In this document: piece by piece, positions 424 to 63,120 of the stretch
How the letters are laid out: the number at the start of each line of letters is the position of its first letter
How positions within the stretch are numbered: the stretch's first letter is position 1
From: Candidatus Peribacteria bacterium
GTDB lineage: Bacteria; Patescibacteriota; Gracilibacteria; UBA1369; LOWO2-01-FULL-3
Reading direction: 5' to 3'
NCBI GenBank assembly: GCA_943357285.1
Contig: CALRGJ010000007.1
Coordinates: 56-64,055 of the forward strand
Length of the DNA stretch: 64,000 bases
Made by a program: the position numbers and the translations under genes
Notes under the pieces: model-generated
What the model saw: only the letters and a program-made list of their open reading frames with translations
What the model was told of the DNA's origin: nothing
Database searches by the model: none

Positions 424-2727
424 TTATTTATAGATAATCTCGGTTTCTCCCTTTGCAAATACCCACATCATACTTGGCGTAGCCCAATAGATGGTGGTTT
501 GAGCGCCTTTTGCCTTCCAGTCGGGGAAATAGGAGTAGTTTATCAATGTACCTCCCTGAGTATCAAATTTAACGGTCATATCTTCGACTACATTTGCCAC
601 AACCTTTTCTCTTACAATTTGGTCACGATTAAATGCCAGCAATGACCTCAACAAAATATCACTTCCAATATTCACCCCAAAATCTTTAATGAATTCCACG
701 TCGCTGCTTTGGCCATTTTGTTTAAATTCCGCAGCCAATTCAGCATCAGGAGTTGCATTGAGCAGTATCAGCTTTTTCCCACTATTAAGCCATTCCTGAT
801 AGTGATTTTTGGACACTAAGCTGCCACTTGGCATACTGACTATGTAGCCACTCATTTGCTCAATTTCTTCTTTAGGAATCATTGCCAGTTTTTTCTTTGT
901 ATGAATTACCGGCATTTCAAAAAGTGCTGGTTGCTTAAACCATTCCTTGCTGAAATCCAAAAATTCCATCCCACCATTATCAATAAACAGAAGTGGTTTA
1001 TAATTAGTGGTCTCAATGAAAGGCCTAAAATCCTTCAACTCCAAGACGCTGAAATTACCCTTATCCACCAGTTTGGCAATTAGCTTTTCATCTACAGTAT
1101 CGAGAATTGTATCAGCTCCATCTTTTGTCTGTAAAATATACTGAACATTATATAAACCTAAGCGCTTAATCATAGAATTCATATCCTGCTCACTAAAGCC
1201 TGAATCCTCAAGCAACGAAGTATTTCCCCAGTTTAATGAGCTACCAACTTTTGCTATCGTTGGCAAAACAAATTGAGTGGAAAGAGCCGACTCCGCCAGT
1301 AGACCAGGAATGACCGAAATTTTATAATTTAGAGGTAAAAATGTAGCGAAGAAATGTGGCGACCCCAACGTGAATTGCAAGCTTGGTAGGCTAGGCACCA
1401 CTACACGGTTTTTGATCTGTAAACCACCTAGGTAGTCCATGACCTTCTGAGCATCGGCATTTTCCGAATATTCAGAGAAATTATATTTGTGAGTATAGTT
1501 TCTAGGATTGTCAGAAAGGTTGAATTTATCAATGTAACTTATCATCAAGGAAATGATTACAACTCCGACCAAAAGACCCTTGAAGGAATCTTCAGCGATA
1601 GGTTTCAGCTTTCCCAATTTTTTGACAATAAAAATCATTCCGGCAGTAGCAAGGAAAATATTCAGAGCAAAAATATGAGCCGTATAACGATAATAATGAA
1701 CCGGTAAGTCAAAATAAGAGACTAAATACTGACGCGGCAAAACAACCAGAGTAAGGATAAAAGCCACTGCCCAAAAGTCATTTTTGCTCTTAATTGTAAC
1801 GTAAATGCCGATCAGACTTGATATAAGAAGTAGAGCTGTTGGAATTGAGGCAAGAGCCAAACTCATTGAGTGGTCGCCATAATAAGAAGGGAAATCAAAC
1901 AGTACAAAAAGTGGATCGTTGGTTGCCCCCAATAGTCCCAATTTTTGACCTGAGCTAAAAGATAAATCACTTAAAAAAGGTATTAGCCAAAATGAGCTTA
2001 AAACAAGAGCCAGCACCCCCATTAGGAAAGCTGATTTCCAGATTTTTTTCCAATTCAAAAAAGTAAAAATAGCCAGCAACAAAAGAGTGAAAAGGAGAGT
2101 CATTGCATGGGTAATAATCAACATTGTCAAAAGCAATGTTCCCCAGATTATATTTGCTGTCCTTGGATTCCTTTTTTGTTTCTCAATAATCCCCAAAAAG
2201 AAAATCATCAAGCATATTGCAAAAAAACTTGTAAATAGGCCGACTGAAACTATCGAATCAATACCAACTCCCATATATGCCTTATCTTGAACAGCACATA
2301 AAAAGAAGGTTCCAAATATCATAGCAACGTAGCCTCCAATTTTATCAAACCAAACTCTGGCCGTATACCATATGGAAGCCAAAAACAAGAAAGGTAATGC
2401 AAACAGAAACAGATTAAATGATAGAGCCAGCCCAATCTTGCCAGCAGTCAAAAAGTGAGGAATAGACATTAAGATATAAGGGAAAGGTCCATAGAGCTTA
2501 AACACCGGGAATCCACCAAACCACAAACTATCATATCCACCAATCTGTCCCATCTTTAAATAGTCCACCATCTTAGTGAAAAGATAGAAGTGAGGAGTAG
2601 TGTCCCATCCTGGGATTACTCTATTTGTAAGCAATGGACTTAGCAGCCAACCCAATAAAAATATACTAAATCCCCAGATCAAGAGATCAAATTTATTATC
2701 TTTGAGCCAAGCAGTTAACTTTTTCAT
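424..2727 (-). CDS. Polytopic membrane protein, GT-C-like glycosyltransferase ('6-pyruvoyl-tetrahydropterin synthase-related' family)
   Basis: 767 aa, many TM helices, N-terminal GWDTTPH...WFGGFPVFKLYGP motif, C-terminal soluble domain with NYSYFPDW. Confidence 0.7.
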   Translation of the reverse strand: MKKLTAWLKDNKFDLLIWGFSIFLLGWLLSPLLTNRVIPGWDTTPHFYLFTKMVDYLKMGQIGGYDSLWFGGFPVFKLYGPFPYILMSIPHFLTAGKIGLALSFNLFLFALPFLFLASIWYTARVWFDKIGGYVAMIFGTFFLCAVQDKAYMGVGIDSIVSVGLFTSFFAICLMIFFLGIIEKQKRNPRTANIIWGTLLLTMLIITHAMTLLFTLLLLAIFTFLNWKKIWKSAFLMGVLALVLSSFWLIPFLSDLSFSSGQKLGLLGATNDPLFVLFDFPSYYGDHSMSLALASIPTALLLISSLIGIYVTIKSKNDFWAVAFILTLVVLPRQYLVSYFDLPVHYYRYTAHIFALNIFLATAGMIFIVKKLGKLKPIAEDSFKGLLVGVVIISLMISYIDKFNLSDNPRNYTHKYNFSEYSENADAQKVMDYLGGLQIKNRVVVPSLPSLQFTLGSPHFFATFLPLNYKISVIPGLLAESALSTQFVLPTIAKVGSSLNWGNTSLLEDSGFSEQDMNSMIKRLGLYNVQYILQTKDGADTILDTVDEKLIAKLVDKGNFSVLELKDFRPFIETTNYKPLLFIDNGGMEFLDFSKEWFKQPALFEMPVIHTKKKLAMIPKEEIEQMSGYIVSMPSGSLVSKNHYQEWLNSGKKLILLNATPDAELAAEFKQNGQSSDVEFIKDFGVNIGSDILLRSLLAFNRDQIVREKVVANVVEDMTVKFDTQGGTLINYSYFPDWKAKGAQTTIYWATPSMMWVFAKGETEIIYK

Positions 2728-18092: not shown

Positions 18093-18167
18093 TGGCTGGG
18101 GTGGAGGGGTTCGAACCCCCGAATGGAAGCTTCAAAGGCTCCTGCCTTACCACTTGGCTACACCCCA
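18093..18167 (-). tRNA. tRNA-Gln(TTG)
   Basis: TGGGGTGTAGCCAAGTGGTAAGGCA-GGAGC-CTTTGAA-GCTTC...GGGGGTTCGAACCCCT-CCACCCCAGCCA cloverleaf, encoded CCA. Confidence 0.95.
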
Positions 18168-18266: not shown

Positions 18267-18845
18267 ATGGACCCAATTAATCCTCAGCCAAATTCAGCTC
18301 CAACACCTGCGCCAGTTTCTCAAACTCCAGCGCCAGTTGCGACTACTCCAGCACCAACACCAGTCACTCAAGCAGCCGCTGCGCCAACCCCAAAAACCTG
18401 CAAGTGTCCTACAGTAAATGCCGCAGATTGGGACAAGAAAAAACAAATTATTAATAAAGTTTTCTTTAAAGCTTTTTCCCCTCGCATCTTTTATTATCCA
18501 TTCTCCTTCGTGATTGACGTACTTCGCGCGCAGAAAGCTGCGATCGCGAAAGGCTACAAGCCGGTGGAGAATGGAATGGTGCTCGATGATGGAGCAATGT
18601 TCCTCGGGAATGCGATGATAGAAGTTACTGGAGCAAATACTAATGATCCAGCCGTTCTCTCTCTAGAAGGAAAAGAAGTTTACACTAAAGTTTCTCGCCG
18701 TCCTTGGAATCAAATCAAATTGGATATTGATGAGCTCACCAAAGAGCTTGGCAAAAAACCTGCCCAGTTTTTTATTTGGTACACATCTTGTCCTGGTTGC
18801 ACTGAAAATAAAGAAGTGAAATCAGTGCTTATCGCTTTGCCATAA
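18267..18845 (+). CDS. Hypothetical protein, Pro/Thr-rich N-terminus plus 'bacterial hydrolase'-like Cys-motif domain
   Basis: CKCP...WD.K and WYTSCPGC motifs. Confidence 0.65.
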   Translation: MDPINPQPNSAPTPAPVSQTPAPVATTPAPTPVTQAAAAPTPKTCKCPTVNAADWDKKKQIINKVFFKAFSPRIFYYPFSFVIDVLRAQKAAIAKGYKPVENGMVLDDGAMFLGNAMIEVTGANTNDPAVLSLEGKEVYTKVSRRPWNQIKLDIDELTKELGKKPAQFFIWYTSCPGCTENKEVKSVLIALP

Positions 18846-18857
18846 TCTACTAGGCCA

Positions 18858-18933
18858 TGGTGGAGCTGACGGGATTTGAACCCGCACCTTCTAGGTGTCG
18901 AGCATAGACGCTCTACCATTAAGCTACAGCCCC
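18858..18933 (-). tRNA. Atypical tRNA: Ala-type acceptor (G3:U70, A73) with a 19-nt anticodon arm containing CUCGACAC (Val GAC-like or 4-base anticodon)
   Basis: GGGGCTG-TA-GCTT-AATGGTA-GAGC-G-TCTATGCTCGACACCTAGA-AGGT-GCGGG-TTCAAAT-CCCGT-CAGCTCC-ACCA. Confidence 0.8.
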
Positions 18934-18961
18934 ATGACTCCACCAGGCTATTTAAGCATAC

Positions 18962-19034
18962 AAAAAGATCCTCTTTTGACAAAGGATCTAATGCGACACC
19001 TAGAAGGGCTGTAACTTACAGCGTCCATACTTTC
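18962..19034 (-). ncRNA. Putative small RNA antisense to the downstream atypical tRNA
   Basis: Promoter TTGATT-18-TATAAT (19070-19041), three blocks complementary to the tRNA, terminator AGATCCT-N10-AGGATCT-TTTT. Confidence 0.6.
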
Positions 19035-19040
19035 GTCTAT

Positions 19041-19070
19041 ATTATAACAAAAGAAGCGATTTGAAATCAA
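19041..19070 (-). promoter_or_regulatory. Sigma70 promoter of the antisense RNA/tRNA unit
   Basis: TTGATT-18 nt-TATAAT with TG at the extended -10 position. Confidence 0.6.
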
Positions 19071-19122
19071 TACTTATCATCACAAAAAAGTGTTGAACAG
19101 GTCCGTTCAACACCACTCACTT

Positions 19123-63018: not shown

Positions 63019-63120
63019 AAAAAATAGTCCGACTAGCGGACTACTCCCGACCACGTTCCTAGGCTGGTTGTCCCAGTCACGCCACCATCCGGTGACAGTT
63101 CAGAATACAGGTCTTTGTAC
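63019..63120 (-). ncRNA. Putative ~100-nt structured small RNA
   Basis: TTGCTT-17-TAGACT promoter (63154-63126), internal hairpins, terminator TAGTCCG-CTAGT-CGGACTA-TTTTTT. Confidence 0.5.

Follow-up and report, generated by a model that had tools for sequence, protein, structure and literature searches.

Transfer RNAs that carry the body of one amino acid and the anticodon of another have been described as tRNA-ProX in Streptomyces and Kitasatospora, as tRNA-Ser(CAG) in Candida and as anticodon variants of human tRNA-Ala (PMC10404621, PMC11415595, PMC12084884). According to one of these reports, natural mistranslating tRNAs often have odd anticodon loops, with G33 or A33, and these are thought to limit decoding (PMC11415595). 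A tRNA gene in the genome of a Candidatus Peribacteria bacterium, found in a stretch of 64,000 nt that we call the window, shows the same kind of mismatch. Like the described dual-identity tRNAs it is additional to the canonical set and its loop is unusual, through an extra nucleotide here and through A33 or G33 there. It differs from them in its Ala identity, in the Val and Asp anticodons of its family and in an anticodon arm that is 2 nt longer, and mistranslation is putative here. tRNA-ProX comes with its own ProRSx, whereas a search of this genome found a single AlaRS gene and no dedicated second synthetase. The locus also encodes an antisense small RNA and a leader that masks the CCA end, neither of which is reported for the dual-identity families.

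Enlarged anticodon loops are likewise known. In SufB2, other suf alleles and engineered quadruplet decoders one extra nucleotide gives an 8-membered loop, as is most likely here (bioRxiv 10.1101/2020.12.31.424971, PMC9094753); those are laboratory mutants or designs, whereas the present tRNA belongs to a natural family found across genera. It further differs from frameshift suppressors in that the stem is also lengthened or bulged, and we found no frameshift-dependent gene. The yeast mitochondrial tRNA-Thr1(UAG) shows that an 8-nt loop with an insertion on its 5' side can decode triplets in frame, and the Ashbya mitochondrial tRNA-Ala(UAG), with a 7-nt loop, shows that G3:U70 combined with a foreign anticodon can bring Ala to non-Ala codons (PMC3113583, PMC3874161). 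As these sources describe them, both are the sole decoders of reassigned codons, whereas here GUC stays Val and the canonical decoders persist.

The elements of the locus are listed in table 1.

Table 1. Features of the tRNA locus, in positions of the window.
Feature	Position	Strand	Basis and remarks
Non-canonical tRNA gene	18858..18933	(-)	Ala acceptor, canonical D and T arms, 4-nt variable region, 19-nt anticodon arm
Anticodon arm UCUAUGCUCGACACCUAGA, tRNA nt 26-44	18890..18908	(-)	4-bp outer stem, U30 mismatch or bulge, G31 with C39 or C40
8-nt loop CUCGACAC	18895..18902	(-)	GAC at 18897-18899, then A and C as in tRNA-Ala
5' leader AGCCUGGUGGAGUCAU	18934..18949	(-)	Leader/3'-end "panhandle" by complementarity
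tRNA promoter-like site TTGTCA-16-TATGCT	18955..18982	(-)	Consensus scan, predicted; -10 box directly after the small-RNA U-run
Candidate small RNA ("anti-tRNA"), ~70 nt	18961..19034, ends approximate	(-)	Consensus structure of relatives
Seed (antisense segment) CCUUCUAGGUGUCG	18994..19007	(-)	Inverted repeat I1, 100%; contains codon mimic GUCG
Small-RNA promoter-like site TTGATT-18-TATAAT with TG	19041..19070	(-)	Consensus scan, predicted; 10/12 matches

Read on the minus strand from 18933 to 18858, the tRNA is GGGGCUG-UA-GCUU-AAUGGUA-GAGC-G-UCUAUGCUCGACACCUAGA-AGGU-GCGGG-UUCAAAU-CCCGU-CAGCUCC-A-CCA. The first-pass annotation had described it as an Ala acceptor identity joined to an enlarged Val-like anticodon arm, and this structural reading is upheld. 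The acceptor with G3:U70, A73 and an encoded CCA is present in the letters, its stem being that of the genome's tRNA-Ala(UGC) and tRNA-Ala(GGC); the D and T arms are normal, with GG in the D loop and UUCAAAU as the T loop; and the arm is indeed 19 nt long. An NGC anticodon is absent from the loop CUCGACAC in both registers, which excludes a tRNA-Ala that decodes GCN. ARAGORN calls a tRNA at exactly 18858-18933 (-), and the Rfam tRNA model (RF00005) scores it at 58.6 bits against a gathering score of 29, which makes it a member of that family; in the Rfam alignment 11 nt stand where the consensus anticodon hairpin has 9. Folded as a single sequence the tRNA alone gives no cloverleaf, and covariation was used instead; such failure of a lone tRNA in single-sequence prediction is common.

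A 2-nt assembly error in the arm, considered in the first-pass annotation, is excluded, as contigs from two other studies agree with the window without indels: run X3 supplies a 1165-nt contig that differs from 18702-19100 only by a substitution at 19012, and in run X5, from a third study, 18700-18991 is matched by a contig without any difference. In run X6 the arm of a variant contig differs by three substitutions; two of these turn A29:U41 into G:C and are compensatory (one contig, depth 2.3). The same enlarged arm occurs in homologues from many independent genome assemblies, far beyond chance. The contigs of one metatranscriptome (X19) placed nothing on the locus, which counts neither for nor against expression.

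The 19 nt of this anticodon arm do not fit the canonical geometry of 17 nt (5-bp stem, 7-nt loop, U33, purine 37). They can form a mismatched 6-bp stem that leaves a 7-nt loop (CUCGACA) with C37, or a 5-bp stem with a bulge that leaves the 8-nt loop. Both folds had been proposed at first pass, and the comparative data favor the bulged or mismatched stem with the 8-nt loop presenting GAC, while the 7-nt reading with CGA and C37 fits less well. The 8-nt loop has its closing pair in 25 of 26 family members (GC in 15, GU in 6, AU in 3, CG in 1), as against 21/26 and 17/26 for the alternative pairs, although the 6-bp stem fits better in one member (L053). Relatives with an 18-nt arm (L101, L110, L112) combine a clean stem of 5 bp with CUCGUCAU as an 8-nt loop, and those with a 17-nt arm and a 7-nt loop (L107, L113, L114, L115, L054) have GUC at positions 34-36 followed by A37. 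Most likely the loop is the 8-membered C-U-C-G-A-C-A-C, in which the extra pyrimidine C directly 5' of the Val anticodon GAC could also yield a quadruplet CGAC.

Across 30 distinct members the loop follows the consensus N-U-Y-G-N-C-A-C, with U2 in 27, G4 in 28, C6 in 30, A7 in 28 and C8 in 29. Position 5 is the sole freely varying one (A 16, U 12, C 1, G 1), and the triplet before A-C is GAC (Val) in 14 members, GUC (Asp) in 12, AAC in 2 and GCC and GGC in 1 each; the syntenic orthologue in genome G004 has AAC, likewise a Val anticodon. Tools that classify by the anticodon mislabel genes of the family as Ser, Val, Asp, Leu or Thr.

The body points to alanine. G3:U70 in the acceptor stem is the major determinant for AlaRS (PMC3874161), and the sequence has G3:U70 and A73 together with G1:C72 and G2:C71, as expected of an AlaRS substrate. 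With this complete identity set and the canonical L-shape core, the tRNA is most likely charged with alanine in the cell. The Ser label given by ARAGORN derives from the 7-nt-loop reading. Ser tRNAs are recognized by a long variable arm and a Ser-type acceptor; the variable region here is 4 nt, against the long extra arms of the genome's five Ser tRNAs (90-93 nt), and the CGA register would also require C37, so this label was rejected. ValRS recognizes A35, C36 and A73. In the favored register the tRNA offers GAC and A73, but it has the extra loop nucleotide and an Ala-type body, unlike the genome's Val(GAC) at C11:14231. On these features ValRS might also charge the tRNA, which would remove the missense. 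The first-pass annotation had asked whether normal Ala and Val(GAC) tRNAs are present elsewhere; genes for tRNA-Ala(UGC), tRNA-Ala(GGC), Val(GAC), Val(UAC), Ser(CGA) and Asp(GUC) of canonical form are all found in the genome.

The family is restricted mainly to Candidatus Peribacteria/Peregrinibacteria (CPR bacteria): it occurs in 15 of 151 genomes of the order and in 5 of its 19 families, with up to 3 copies per genome, and one further copy was found in Poribacteria. It descends from tRNA-Ala(GGC). G1:C72, G2:C71 and G3:U70 are each kept in 26/26 aligned members, A73 is nearly invariant, and GG in the D loop and UUC in the T loop are conserved. Base pairing is kept in 93.6-95.7% of the cells of the family alignment. 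Changes on both sides are seen in 10 pairs, compensatory changes occur in every one of the four helices, and the covariation score was not reached in any of 500 shuffles. Orthologues of the tRNA within the genus share 77-82% identity, as compared with 0-2 nt differences for the canonical tRNA-Ala(UGC) of the same genomes, and the family evolves fast while retaining its shape. A canonical-type tRNA-Asp is present in 9/9 genomes with Asp-type members (four by ARAGORN, five by 87-100% identity), the family tRNA always being an extra gene beside the canonical decoder.

The genomic surroundings are varied. The neighbors of 37 family loci are heterogeneous housekeeping genes among which no recurrent protein partner was found; the scan covered 73 of the 116 listed ORFs, the remainder being shorter ORFs and four ORFs of the G000 locus, the G000 neighbors having been scanned separately. 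In a relative (G021) nth and tRNA-Gln lie 832 nt apart and the family model finds no such tRNA between them. A search of IMG/VR for phage carriage with the D-arm pattern gave 7 matches, none of them a family member.

Some copies are clearly damaged: the 5' acceptor strand is mismatched in L004, U70 and CCA are missing from L105, and L006 and L069 have an insertion of ~47 nt in the 3' acceptor strand. Such copies would fit a decaying tRNA-Ala duplicate, or a sequencing or assembly artefact, an explanation whose probability for the gene described here is close to negligible. The window copy is intact, independent contigs agree on it, the enlarged arm is kept across five families with compensatory changes, and a dedicated partner RNA, described below, co-evolves with it. 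Covariation, the independent contigs and the tracking of the anticodon by the partner's seed refute decay or artefact for the window copy, and the decayed canonical tRNA suggested at first pass as an alternative is excluded. Judged by its sequence, the gene is an intact supernumerary tRNA gene and not a decayed copy.

The first-pass annotation mentioned an antisense control of the tRNA only in passing, and this remark is its most important point, borne out by a conserved upstream small RNA whose sequence complements that of the anticodon arm and changes along with it from member to member, in orthologues and paralogues alike. The small RNA lies on the tRNA's own strand, about 60-75 nt upstream. 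In its predicted structure the hairpin GCUGUAAGUUACAGC (19008-19022) sits within a 5' stem, the seed is left single-stranded, and the terminator hairpin at 18966-18989 carries a U-run. Of the 17 pairs in the consensus drawn from 22 family members, 11 show compensatory changes. The position of its promoter-like site is conserved in relatives, and a TGTAT-type box, where the predicted -10 box of the tRNA stands, follows the U-run in most family members. No conserved ORF was seen in it across relatives, and there is no Rfam match in 18940-19090 at E<=1.

[quoted passage not shown] No second copy of the 14-mer exists in the 1.21-Mb genome. An upstream small-RNA gene is present for each member with a 19-nt arm. 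The longest upstream antisense run is at least 9 nt in 29 of 42 family loci (maximum 15), against a maximum of 8 in 39 control tRNAs, and the cognate 5-mer seed is found upstream in 26/30 members as compared with 17/90 for variants with a non-cognate middle base. The three small RNAs compared in genome G005 each have their own tRNA as best pairing partner, and small RNA-tRNA duplex energies, a crude measure for long sequences, are best for the cognate pair in 8 of 10 rows. The upstream small RNA is absent from the Poribacteria copy and from subfamily L108-L114, where three loci have possible downstream partners.

The other end of the tRNA is also addressed by complementary RNA. A segment of the 5' leader, UGGUGGAG (18938-18945), is complementary to C69-A76 (CUCCACCA), and GCC in the leader is able to pair with GGC in the trailer. 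The 8-nt exact complement is unique among the genome's 40 tRNAs (the others have at most 6), and the leader duplex energy has a family median of -20.2 kcal/mol (n=40), against -6.1 for the genome's 39 other tRNAs. With the seed on the anticodon and the leader on CCA, both functional ends of the tRNA would be masked by dedicated RNA.

T-box riboswitches contact a tRNA twice, through a codon-like element at the anticodon and through UGGN at NCCA, and the RNA sequences at this locus address the same two points of a tRNA. They differ in that the pairing at the anticodon reaches 14 nt into the stem, in that the regulated "gene" is the tRNA itself, and in that the UGGUG element comes after the terminator, within the leader of the tRNA. 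The T-box covariance model gave no Rfam match in the window at gathering score, nor in 18940-19090 at E<=1.

The close match of the two RNAs raises the possibility, which we consider unlikely, that they form a purely riboregulatory pair, the tRNA-like RNA serving as sponge, decoy or structured partner of the small RNA (or the reverse) and decoding nothing. In plasmid antisense systems pairing starts loop-first at U-turn loops, and the anticodon-like loop would on this explanation be a U-turn recognition loop for fast RNA-RNA pairing of that kind. It would account for the constant match of the partner's seed to the one loop position that varies freely, as pairing-driven co-evolution predicts, and for triplets that switch among Val, Asp, Gly and Ala with no change of amino-acid identity; the small RNA is of classic form, with hairpin, single-stranded seed and terminator, and has this tRNA as its sole long target in the genome. 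However, G34 and C36 are conserved and do not drift with compensation, the AlaRS identity set is intact (the three acceptor pairs in 26/26 members, A73 and CCA nearly invariant), and the canonical elbow is kept with G18, G19, T-loop UUC and A58. An intact identity set and elbow are difficult to account for without processing and aminoacylation of the RNA.

What a charged tRNA of this kind would do on the ribosome can be approached through the genome's codons. When G000 ORFs were aligned to the loci of relatives, GUC was found with V in 63/143 cases and with A in 9/143, like other Val codons, and codon reassignment was rejected; GUC sits at rather conserved Val positions. UCG was aligned with S in 18/44 and with A in 7/44, within the range of other Ser codons, and GAC with D in 110/294. 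There was no avoidance of in-frame GUC followed by G (604/1780, in the middle of the range of NNC codons), so that strongly harmful activity at such sites has left no trace.

An 8-nt loop that carries its extra base on the 5' side of the anticodon is how quadruplet decoders are built, and the seed matches the extra base in 23/30 members. Both features would suit a programmed +1 frameshift decoder needed by particular genes that are interrupted at GUC-G (in relatives, at GAC-R and comparable sites), but this is very improbable. A whole-genome scan for +1 junctions at GTCG gave 6 sites against ~3 expected, and the five distinct junctions inspected look ordinary, being adjacent or overlapping genes or non-coding frames. 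The lack of GUC-G avoidance speaks against such a decoder as well, as does the absence of the family from most relatives of the same gene content.

Staphylococci, which have Fem transferases, likewise have a supernumerary isoacceptor, the non-proteogenic tRNA-Gly, and retain dedicated genes for it; these Fem-donor tRNAs keep a Gly anticodon, have UGC or UGU for UUC in the T loop, have lost G18/G19 and bind EF-Tu weakly (PMC7826273). By analogy, the present tRNA could be a non-ribosomal donor, charged by AlaRS and feeding Ala to FemX/MurM-type transferases for a peptidoglycan side chain; its distorted anticodon arm would bar it from the ribosome, and the small RNA and leader would only tune supply. 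We regard this as distinctly unlikely. The genome does encode two FemAB-family proteins (351 and 345 aa), and Weissella FemX is described as requiring the acceptor stem alone (C71, C72, ACCA), which is fully conserved here (PMC2175331). A few family copies adjoin genes for MurG, Ddl, a D-Ala-D-Ala carboxypeptidase or a Mur ligase; such cell-wall neighbors, however, number 4 in 37 scanned loci against an estimated 2 or so expected. FemAB is present in 144 of the 151 genomes of the order and the tRNA in 15, which shows no specific co-occurrence and, FemAB being near-universal, makes co-occurrence uninformative as a test. An unused loop should drift, yet 7 of 8 loop positions are conserved and the partner RNA changes with the anticodon. 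Both elements lost from the staphylococcal donors, the T-loop UUC and G18/G19, are kept, and the tRNA departs from the staphylococcal type in its normal elbow, its altered anticodon arm and its partner small RNA. Two other non-canonical uses, Ala-lipid synthesis and RqcH-type Ala-tailing, are unsupported, since LPG_synthase_C was not found in the genome and NFACT_N/RqcH gave nothing above the cut-off, with one 15-bit match only.

The explanation we favor, tentatively and at somewhat less than even probability, is that the tRNA is an Ala-charged, attenuated reader of Val codons or of GUCG that is kept masked by a codon-mimic small RNA. Val-to-Ala mistranslation, +1 frameshifting and a non-ribosomal Ala donor had all been put forward as possible functions at first pass. 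The tRNA gene would be one half of a two-RNA module whose other half is the upstream small RNA with its own predicted promoter and terminator. The anatomy of this module, its conservation, the covariation and the uniqueness of the pairing are observed, whereas charging, expression, decoding and harmfulness are inferred. The seed, mimicking the codon GUCG, would pair with the anticodon together with A37, C38 and the 3' half of its stem, and the tRNA's own 5' leader would pair with the CCA end. Once expressed, matured and free, the Ala-tRNA may read GUC and GUU as Val-to-Ala missense, or GUC-G with a +1 shift, in either case inefficiently and harmfully. The antisense small RNA and the leader would hold it inactive, with activity arising only when the small RNA is scarce. 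The outcome might be regulated mistranslation, or an all-RNA module resembling toxin-antitoxin or abortive systems.

The second of these outcomes has described parallels. In type I antitoxins and in the type VIII CreTA system an adjacent, seed-bearing small RNA neutralizes a neighboring RNA, and CreT sequesters a tRNA in the toxic step (PMC8501985, PMC10767807). Here the neutralization would be analogous, the presumed harmful RNA being the tRNA itself and the antidote mimicking its codon. The complementarity supplies an adjacent, specifically pairing antidote RNA of type VIII-like kind, toxicity being putative. Patchy distribution, multiple copies and fast evolution are shared with all-RNA toxin-antitoxin pairs; the module differs from CreTA and type I systems in that its genes are in tandem on one strand and do not overlap, and in having no CRISPR component. 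That the tRNA is in fact the toxin of an all-RNA toxin-antitoxin or abortive-infection module is rather unlikely. A long-lived Ala-tRNA would then corrupt translation once its short-lived codon-mimic antidote is no longer made, through Ala misincorporation or +1 slips from the Val or Asp anticodon in the 8-nt loop. The self-complementary leader would slow maturation and act as a second safety catch, and the module would spread and diversify like addiction or defense modules, patchy, multi-copy and fast-evolving and reaching Poribacteria.

Our search of mainly open-access literature found no published description of such tRNAs or of a codon-mimic small RNA that targets a tRNA. Even on the most cautious reading, the small RNA is new and conserved, and the locus defines a class of antisense control aimed at a tRNA that is likewise new. 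It also carries a warning to annotators, as anticodon-based labels of the genes of this family are unreliable. If the tRNA is indeed a masked reader of Val codons or of GUCG, this would be the first natural case known to us of a tRNA with mismatched identity and anticodon that has a dedicated codon-mimic RNA to cage that anticodon, and tRNA would join the list of RNA toxins. Its combination of an 8-nt-loop tRNA, a codon-mimic small RNA and a CCA-masking leader would be a natural orthogonal design of interest for genetic-code engineering. For the ultra-small CPR bacteria themselves, it would mean that mistranslation or slipping of the frame can be a regulated or weaponized activity.

Read on the minus strand from 18933 to 18858, the odd tRNA is GGGGCUG UA GCUU AAUGGUA GAGC G UCUAUGCUCGACACCUAGA AGGU GCGGG UUCAAAU CCCGU CAGCUCC A CCA. 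The observation of an alanine-acceptor tRNA with an enlarged anticodon arm, made in the first-pass annotation, was confirmed: ARAGORN calls a tRNA at exactly 18858-18933 (-), labeled Ser(cga) in keeping with a 7-nt-loop reading, and the Rfam tRNA model matches at 58.6 bits (threshold 29), with an anticodon hairpin equal to the Rfam consensus plus 2 nt. An assembly error inserting 2 nt into the arm, the artifact that annotation had envisaged, is ruled out by contigs of two other studies, which cover the gene with no indel; a strain variant in a third run changes the A29:U41 pair to G:C. The same genome (G000; 1.21 Mb, 25 contigs, 38% G+C, 40 tRNA genes, and one tmRNA) encodes normal tRNAs for both of the identities combined here: canonical tRNA-Ala(UGC) and tRNA-Ala(GGC), which have the acceptor GGGGCUG/CAGCUCC-A-CCA in common with the odd tRNA, and Val(GAC), besides Val(UAC), Ser(CGA), and Asp(GUC). 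It also encodes a type-A RNase P RNA and a single AlaRS (L128, C2:21425-22810), which lies inside a 627-aa open frame; typical bacterial AlaRS has ~870 aa, so this enzyme may be without C-terminal parts. For the tmRNA (C5:7260-7687), the predicted tag, ATTFVDKMAAKLAAREFGFQPAFAYAA, is unusually long.

Related loci were found in assemblies of Candidatus Peregrinibacteria or Peribacteria. BLAST of relatives, a D-arm pattern applied to a single genome for each GTDB species (52 hits), and a covariance model searched against 151 genomes of the order each returned tRNAs that join an Ala acceptor to an enlarged anticodon arm; 34 further regions, the listed model hits of at least 60.1 bits outside the loci already collected, were fetched. 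Among listed hits at or above this score, the family occurs in 15 of the 151 genomes, from 5 of the order's 19 families, and a genome may carry as many as three copies. G1:C72, G2:C71, and G3:U70 are invariant in a 26-member alignment, in which 93.6-95.7% of cells are paired, ten pairs show two-sided changes, and the covariation score was reached by none of 500 shuffles. Orthologues inside the genus are 77-82% identical, whereas canonical tRNA-Ala(UGC) differs by 0-2 nt in the same genomes: the family is fast-evolving, with shape and alanine identity retained. Its apparent source, by sequence, is canonical tRNA-Ala(GGC), of which two genes (L106, L111) share its short D-loop type. The distribution is patchy and multi-copy with heterogeneous gene neighborhoods, and family tRNAs are always extra genes beside the canonical set; a canonical-type tRNA-Asp is present in all nine genomes with Asp-type members. 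The order tRNA-Gln(UUG), 192-aa ORF, odd tRNA, nth is conserved in six relatives; in one relative nth and tRNA-Gln lie 832 nt apart, and the covariance model detects no family tRNA there.

Several members depart from this picture. Two Poribacteria MAGs (L083/L087) hold a member with a 19-nt arm and loop GUUGACGC, as in locus L007, flanked by sulfotransferase genes and with CCA not encoded, which suggests transfer between phyla. The syntenic orthologue in a relative's genome, G004 (L006/L075), and a locus of another, G005 (L069), share a conserved ~47-nt insertion that interrupts the 3' acceptor strand behind position 68 and forms its own hairpin with a ACCAUCCUUCGGAUGGU core, before the sequence resumes ..UCCACCA; this motif was absent from the G000 genome and every other locus collected. 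In locus L101/L074, a second tRNA-like sequence without D arm (2303-2373, minus strand) lies ~730 nt from the family member; its acceptor is Ala-type, its loop is that of the family (CUUGACAC), and its T arm is normal.

The arm can be folded with a 6-bp stem, internal mismatch, and 7-nt loop (CGA, C37), or with a bulged 5-bp stem and 8-nt loop. The pair closing the 8-nt loop is formed in 25 of 26 members, by four pair types, versus 21/26 and 17/26 for the alternative pairs. In relatives with an 18-nt arm the 5-bp stem is clean and the loop reads CUCGUCAU, and those with a 17-nt arm have UUGUCAC, placing GUC at 34-36 followed by A37. Among 30 distinct 19-nt-arm members the loop consensus is N-U-Y-G-N-C-A-C (U 27, G 28, C 30, A 28, C 29), the fifth position being the sole free one (A 16, U 12, C 1, G 1), and the triplet preceding A-C is GAC in 14, GUC in 12, AAC in 2, and GCC and GGC in 1 each. 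Every syntenic orthologue of the odd tRNA has a Val triplet: five read GAC and one reads AAC. Together, these comparisons favor a Val-like anticodon register, probably with an additional pyrimidine preceding the anticodon; the 6-bp fold better suits one member, L053.

Upstream of the odd tRNA, on the same strand, we predict a small RNA containing the segment CCUUCUAGGUGUCG, which is complementary over 14/14 nt to tRNA nucleotides 34-47, spanning the quadruplet CGAC, A37, C38, the 3' stem strand, and the start of the variable region; this 14-mer has no second occurrence in the G000 genome. All six syntenic orthologues possess the element, altered in step with their own anticodon arms. The longest upstream antisense run is at least 9 nt in 29 of 42 family loci (maximum 15), with a maximum of 8 for 39 control tRNAs, and the 5-mer complement of G-N-C-A-C occurs upstream in 26/30 members (17/90 for variants with another middle base). 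The seeds GUCG, GUCA, GUUA, GACA, GACG, GACC, and GGCA face CGAC, UGAC, UAAC, UGUC, CGUC, GGUC, and UGCC, respectively. Alignment of 22 upstream regions predicts a hairpin within a 5' stem, followed by a single-stranded seed and a terminator, with compensatory changes in 11 of 17 pairs; the region matched no Rfam family and contained no conserved ORF. The element is missing from the Poribacteria copy and from the 17- and 18-nt-arm members of one family of the order, three of which have possible downstream partners. In this subfamily, matches of 10-13 nt to the anticodon arm lie downstream of L110, L113, L108, and L115. The L115 match, at +69, is antisense on the tRNA's own strand; the other three are direct repeats, which would be antisense in a transcript of the opposite strand. 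In these loci the partner may have another position.

Features of the odd tRNA locus and its surroundings (window coordinates)
Feature	Position	Strand	Remark
Promoter-like site of small RNA	19070-19041	-	Upstream scan, predicted
Antisense segment CCUUCUAGGUGUCG	19007-18994	-	Between first promoter-like site and terminator
Terminator hairpin and U-run	18989-18966	-	Upstream scan, predicted
Second promoter-like site, for odd tRNA	18982-18955	-	Upstream scan, predicted
192-aa ORF, Pfam PF20603 (Bact_hydrolase)	18267-18845	+	Convergent, ends 12 nt from odd tRNA's 3' end
tRNA-Gln(UUG)	18093-18167	-	
Rfam DUF3800-IX RNA match	63045-63113	-	50.4 bits vs. gathering 36.8

A second complementarity involves the 5' leader, which carries UGGUGGAG, the complement of C69-A76; in the other tRNAs of G000 such leader/3'-end matches reach at most 6 nt. 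The duplex of leader and 3' end or trailer has a median of -20.2 kcal/mol in the family (n=40) versus -6.1 for 39 other G000 tRNAs, and 29 of the 40 members exceed the best control. It also co-varies: the leader-trailer helix of the Poribacteria copy is of other sequence and still complementary. In the predicted fold of the flanked transcript, the leader covers the CCA end (z = -4.1). As the odd tRNA here lacks its own U-run, transcription may continue from it, antisense, into the 3' end of the PF20603 ORF.

As to function, the first-pass annotation had read the gene as a chimeric Ala/Val-like tRNA serving Val->Ala mistranslation, +1 frameshifting, or non-ribosomal donation of alanine. This is supported in part: family comparison favors the Val-like register, and the proposed activities left no codon-usage footprint, which argues that any such activity is low or rare. 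GUC codons of G000 align with Val in relatives, as do its other Val codons, and UCG codons with Ser; GUC is its rarest Val codon (8%), yet found at conserved Val positions. Scanning the whole genome for 0/+1 ORF junctions at GTCG turned up 6 sites versus ~3 expected, of which five distinct sites, on inspection, were all ordinary-looking, and no depletion of in-frame GUC before G was found in G000. The missing footprint leaves room for a purely riboregulatory role and likewise for that of a cell-wall donor, for which G000 has two FemAB-family genes; this family is, however, present in 144/151 genomes of the order and thus does not track the odd tRNA. Staphylococcal cell-wall tRNAs have lost G18, G19, and the UUC T-loop, according to PMC7826273, whereas the odd tRNA retains all three. 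Neither an aminoacyl-lipid synthase domain nor RqcH was found in G000.

Sporadic tRNAs of other phyla likewise join an Ala acceptor to an Asp or Val anticodon, in an ordinary loop, so the identity mismatch may be a wider, overlooked phenomenon. Those with G3:U70, A73, and an ordinary-length arm are L152, L164 (=L054), L185, L193, L173 (=L068), L042, L048, and L077; GUC is seen in an Actinomycetota MAG, Acidiferrales, Ignavibacteriales, and Dehalococcoidales, GAC in a Saccharibacteria MAG, and, by hand reading, AUC in two copies and GUC in one in Candidatus Hakubella. A phage tRNA-like gene on an IMG/VR contig (L198) has an Ala-type acceptor (G3:U70, A73) and an anticodon loop left unassigned by ARAGORN ("tRNA-???"). 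Within the family, GUC lies in a 7-nt loop in L113 (G082), where G3:C70 has replaced the wobble pair, and L107/L076 (G086) keeps G3:U70 with G73, the Asp-type discriminator; on these substitutions, both may be steps of an Ala to Asp identity switch.

Among the closest known counterparts of the odd tRNA are the tRNA-ProX mistranslators, +1 frameshift suppressors, the 8-nt-loop mitochondrial tRNA-Thr1 and Ashbya tRNA-Ala(UAG), and the staphylococcal non-proteogenic tRNA-Gly; antisense or type VIII RNA pairs are among those of the two-RNA module, and the T-box addresses the same two tRNA contact points. None of these combines the module's features, and a literature search reaching few subscription journals returned no account of the tRNA family or of an anticodon-dedicated small RNA. 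PMC11415595 describes crippled anticodon loops as frequent among natural mistranslators.

Our comparisons show a tRNA whose identity is fully that of alanine and whose enlarged loop presents a Val-type anticodon, together with a predicted small RNA that co-evolves with it as a codon mimic, and a leader predicted to mask the CCA end. The odd tRNA would be charged with alanine and enter the ribosome poorly, there inserting Ala at GUC/GUU or slipping +1 at GUC-G; this activity would be mostly unwanted and held down by two masking RNAs, the small RNA and the leader. Such an arrangement resembles regulated mistranslation and, by analogy only, an RNA-RNA toxin-antitoxin pair like CreTA (PMC8501985, PMC10767807). 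The odd tRNA is a non-canonical tRNA, its role inferred from sequence, inside a previously undescribed two-RNA module.
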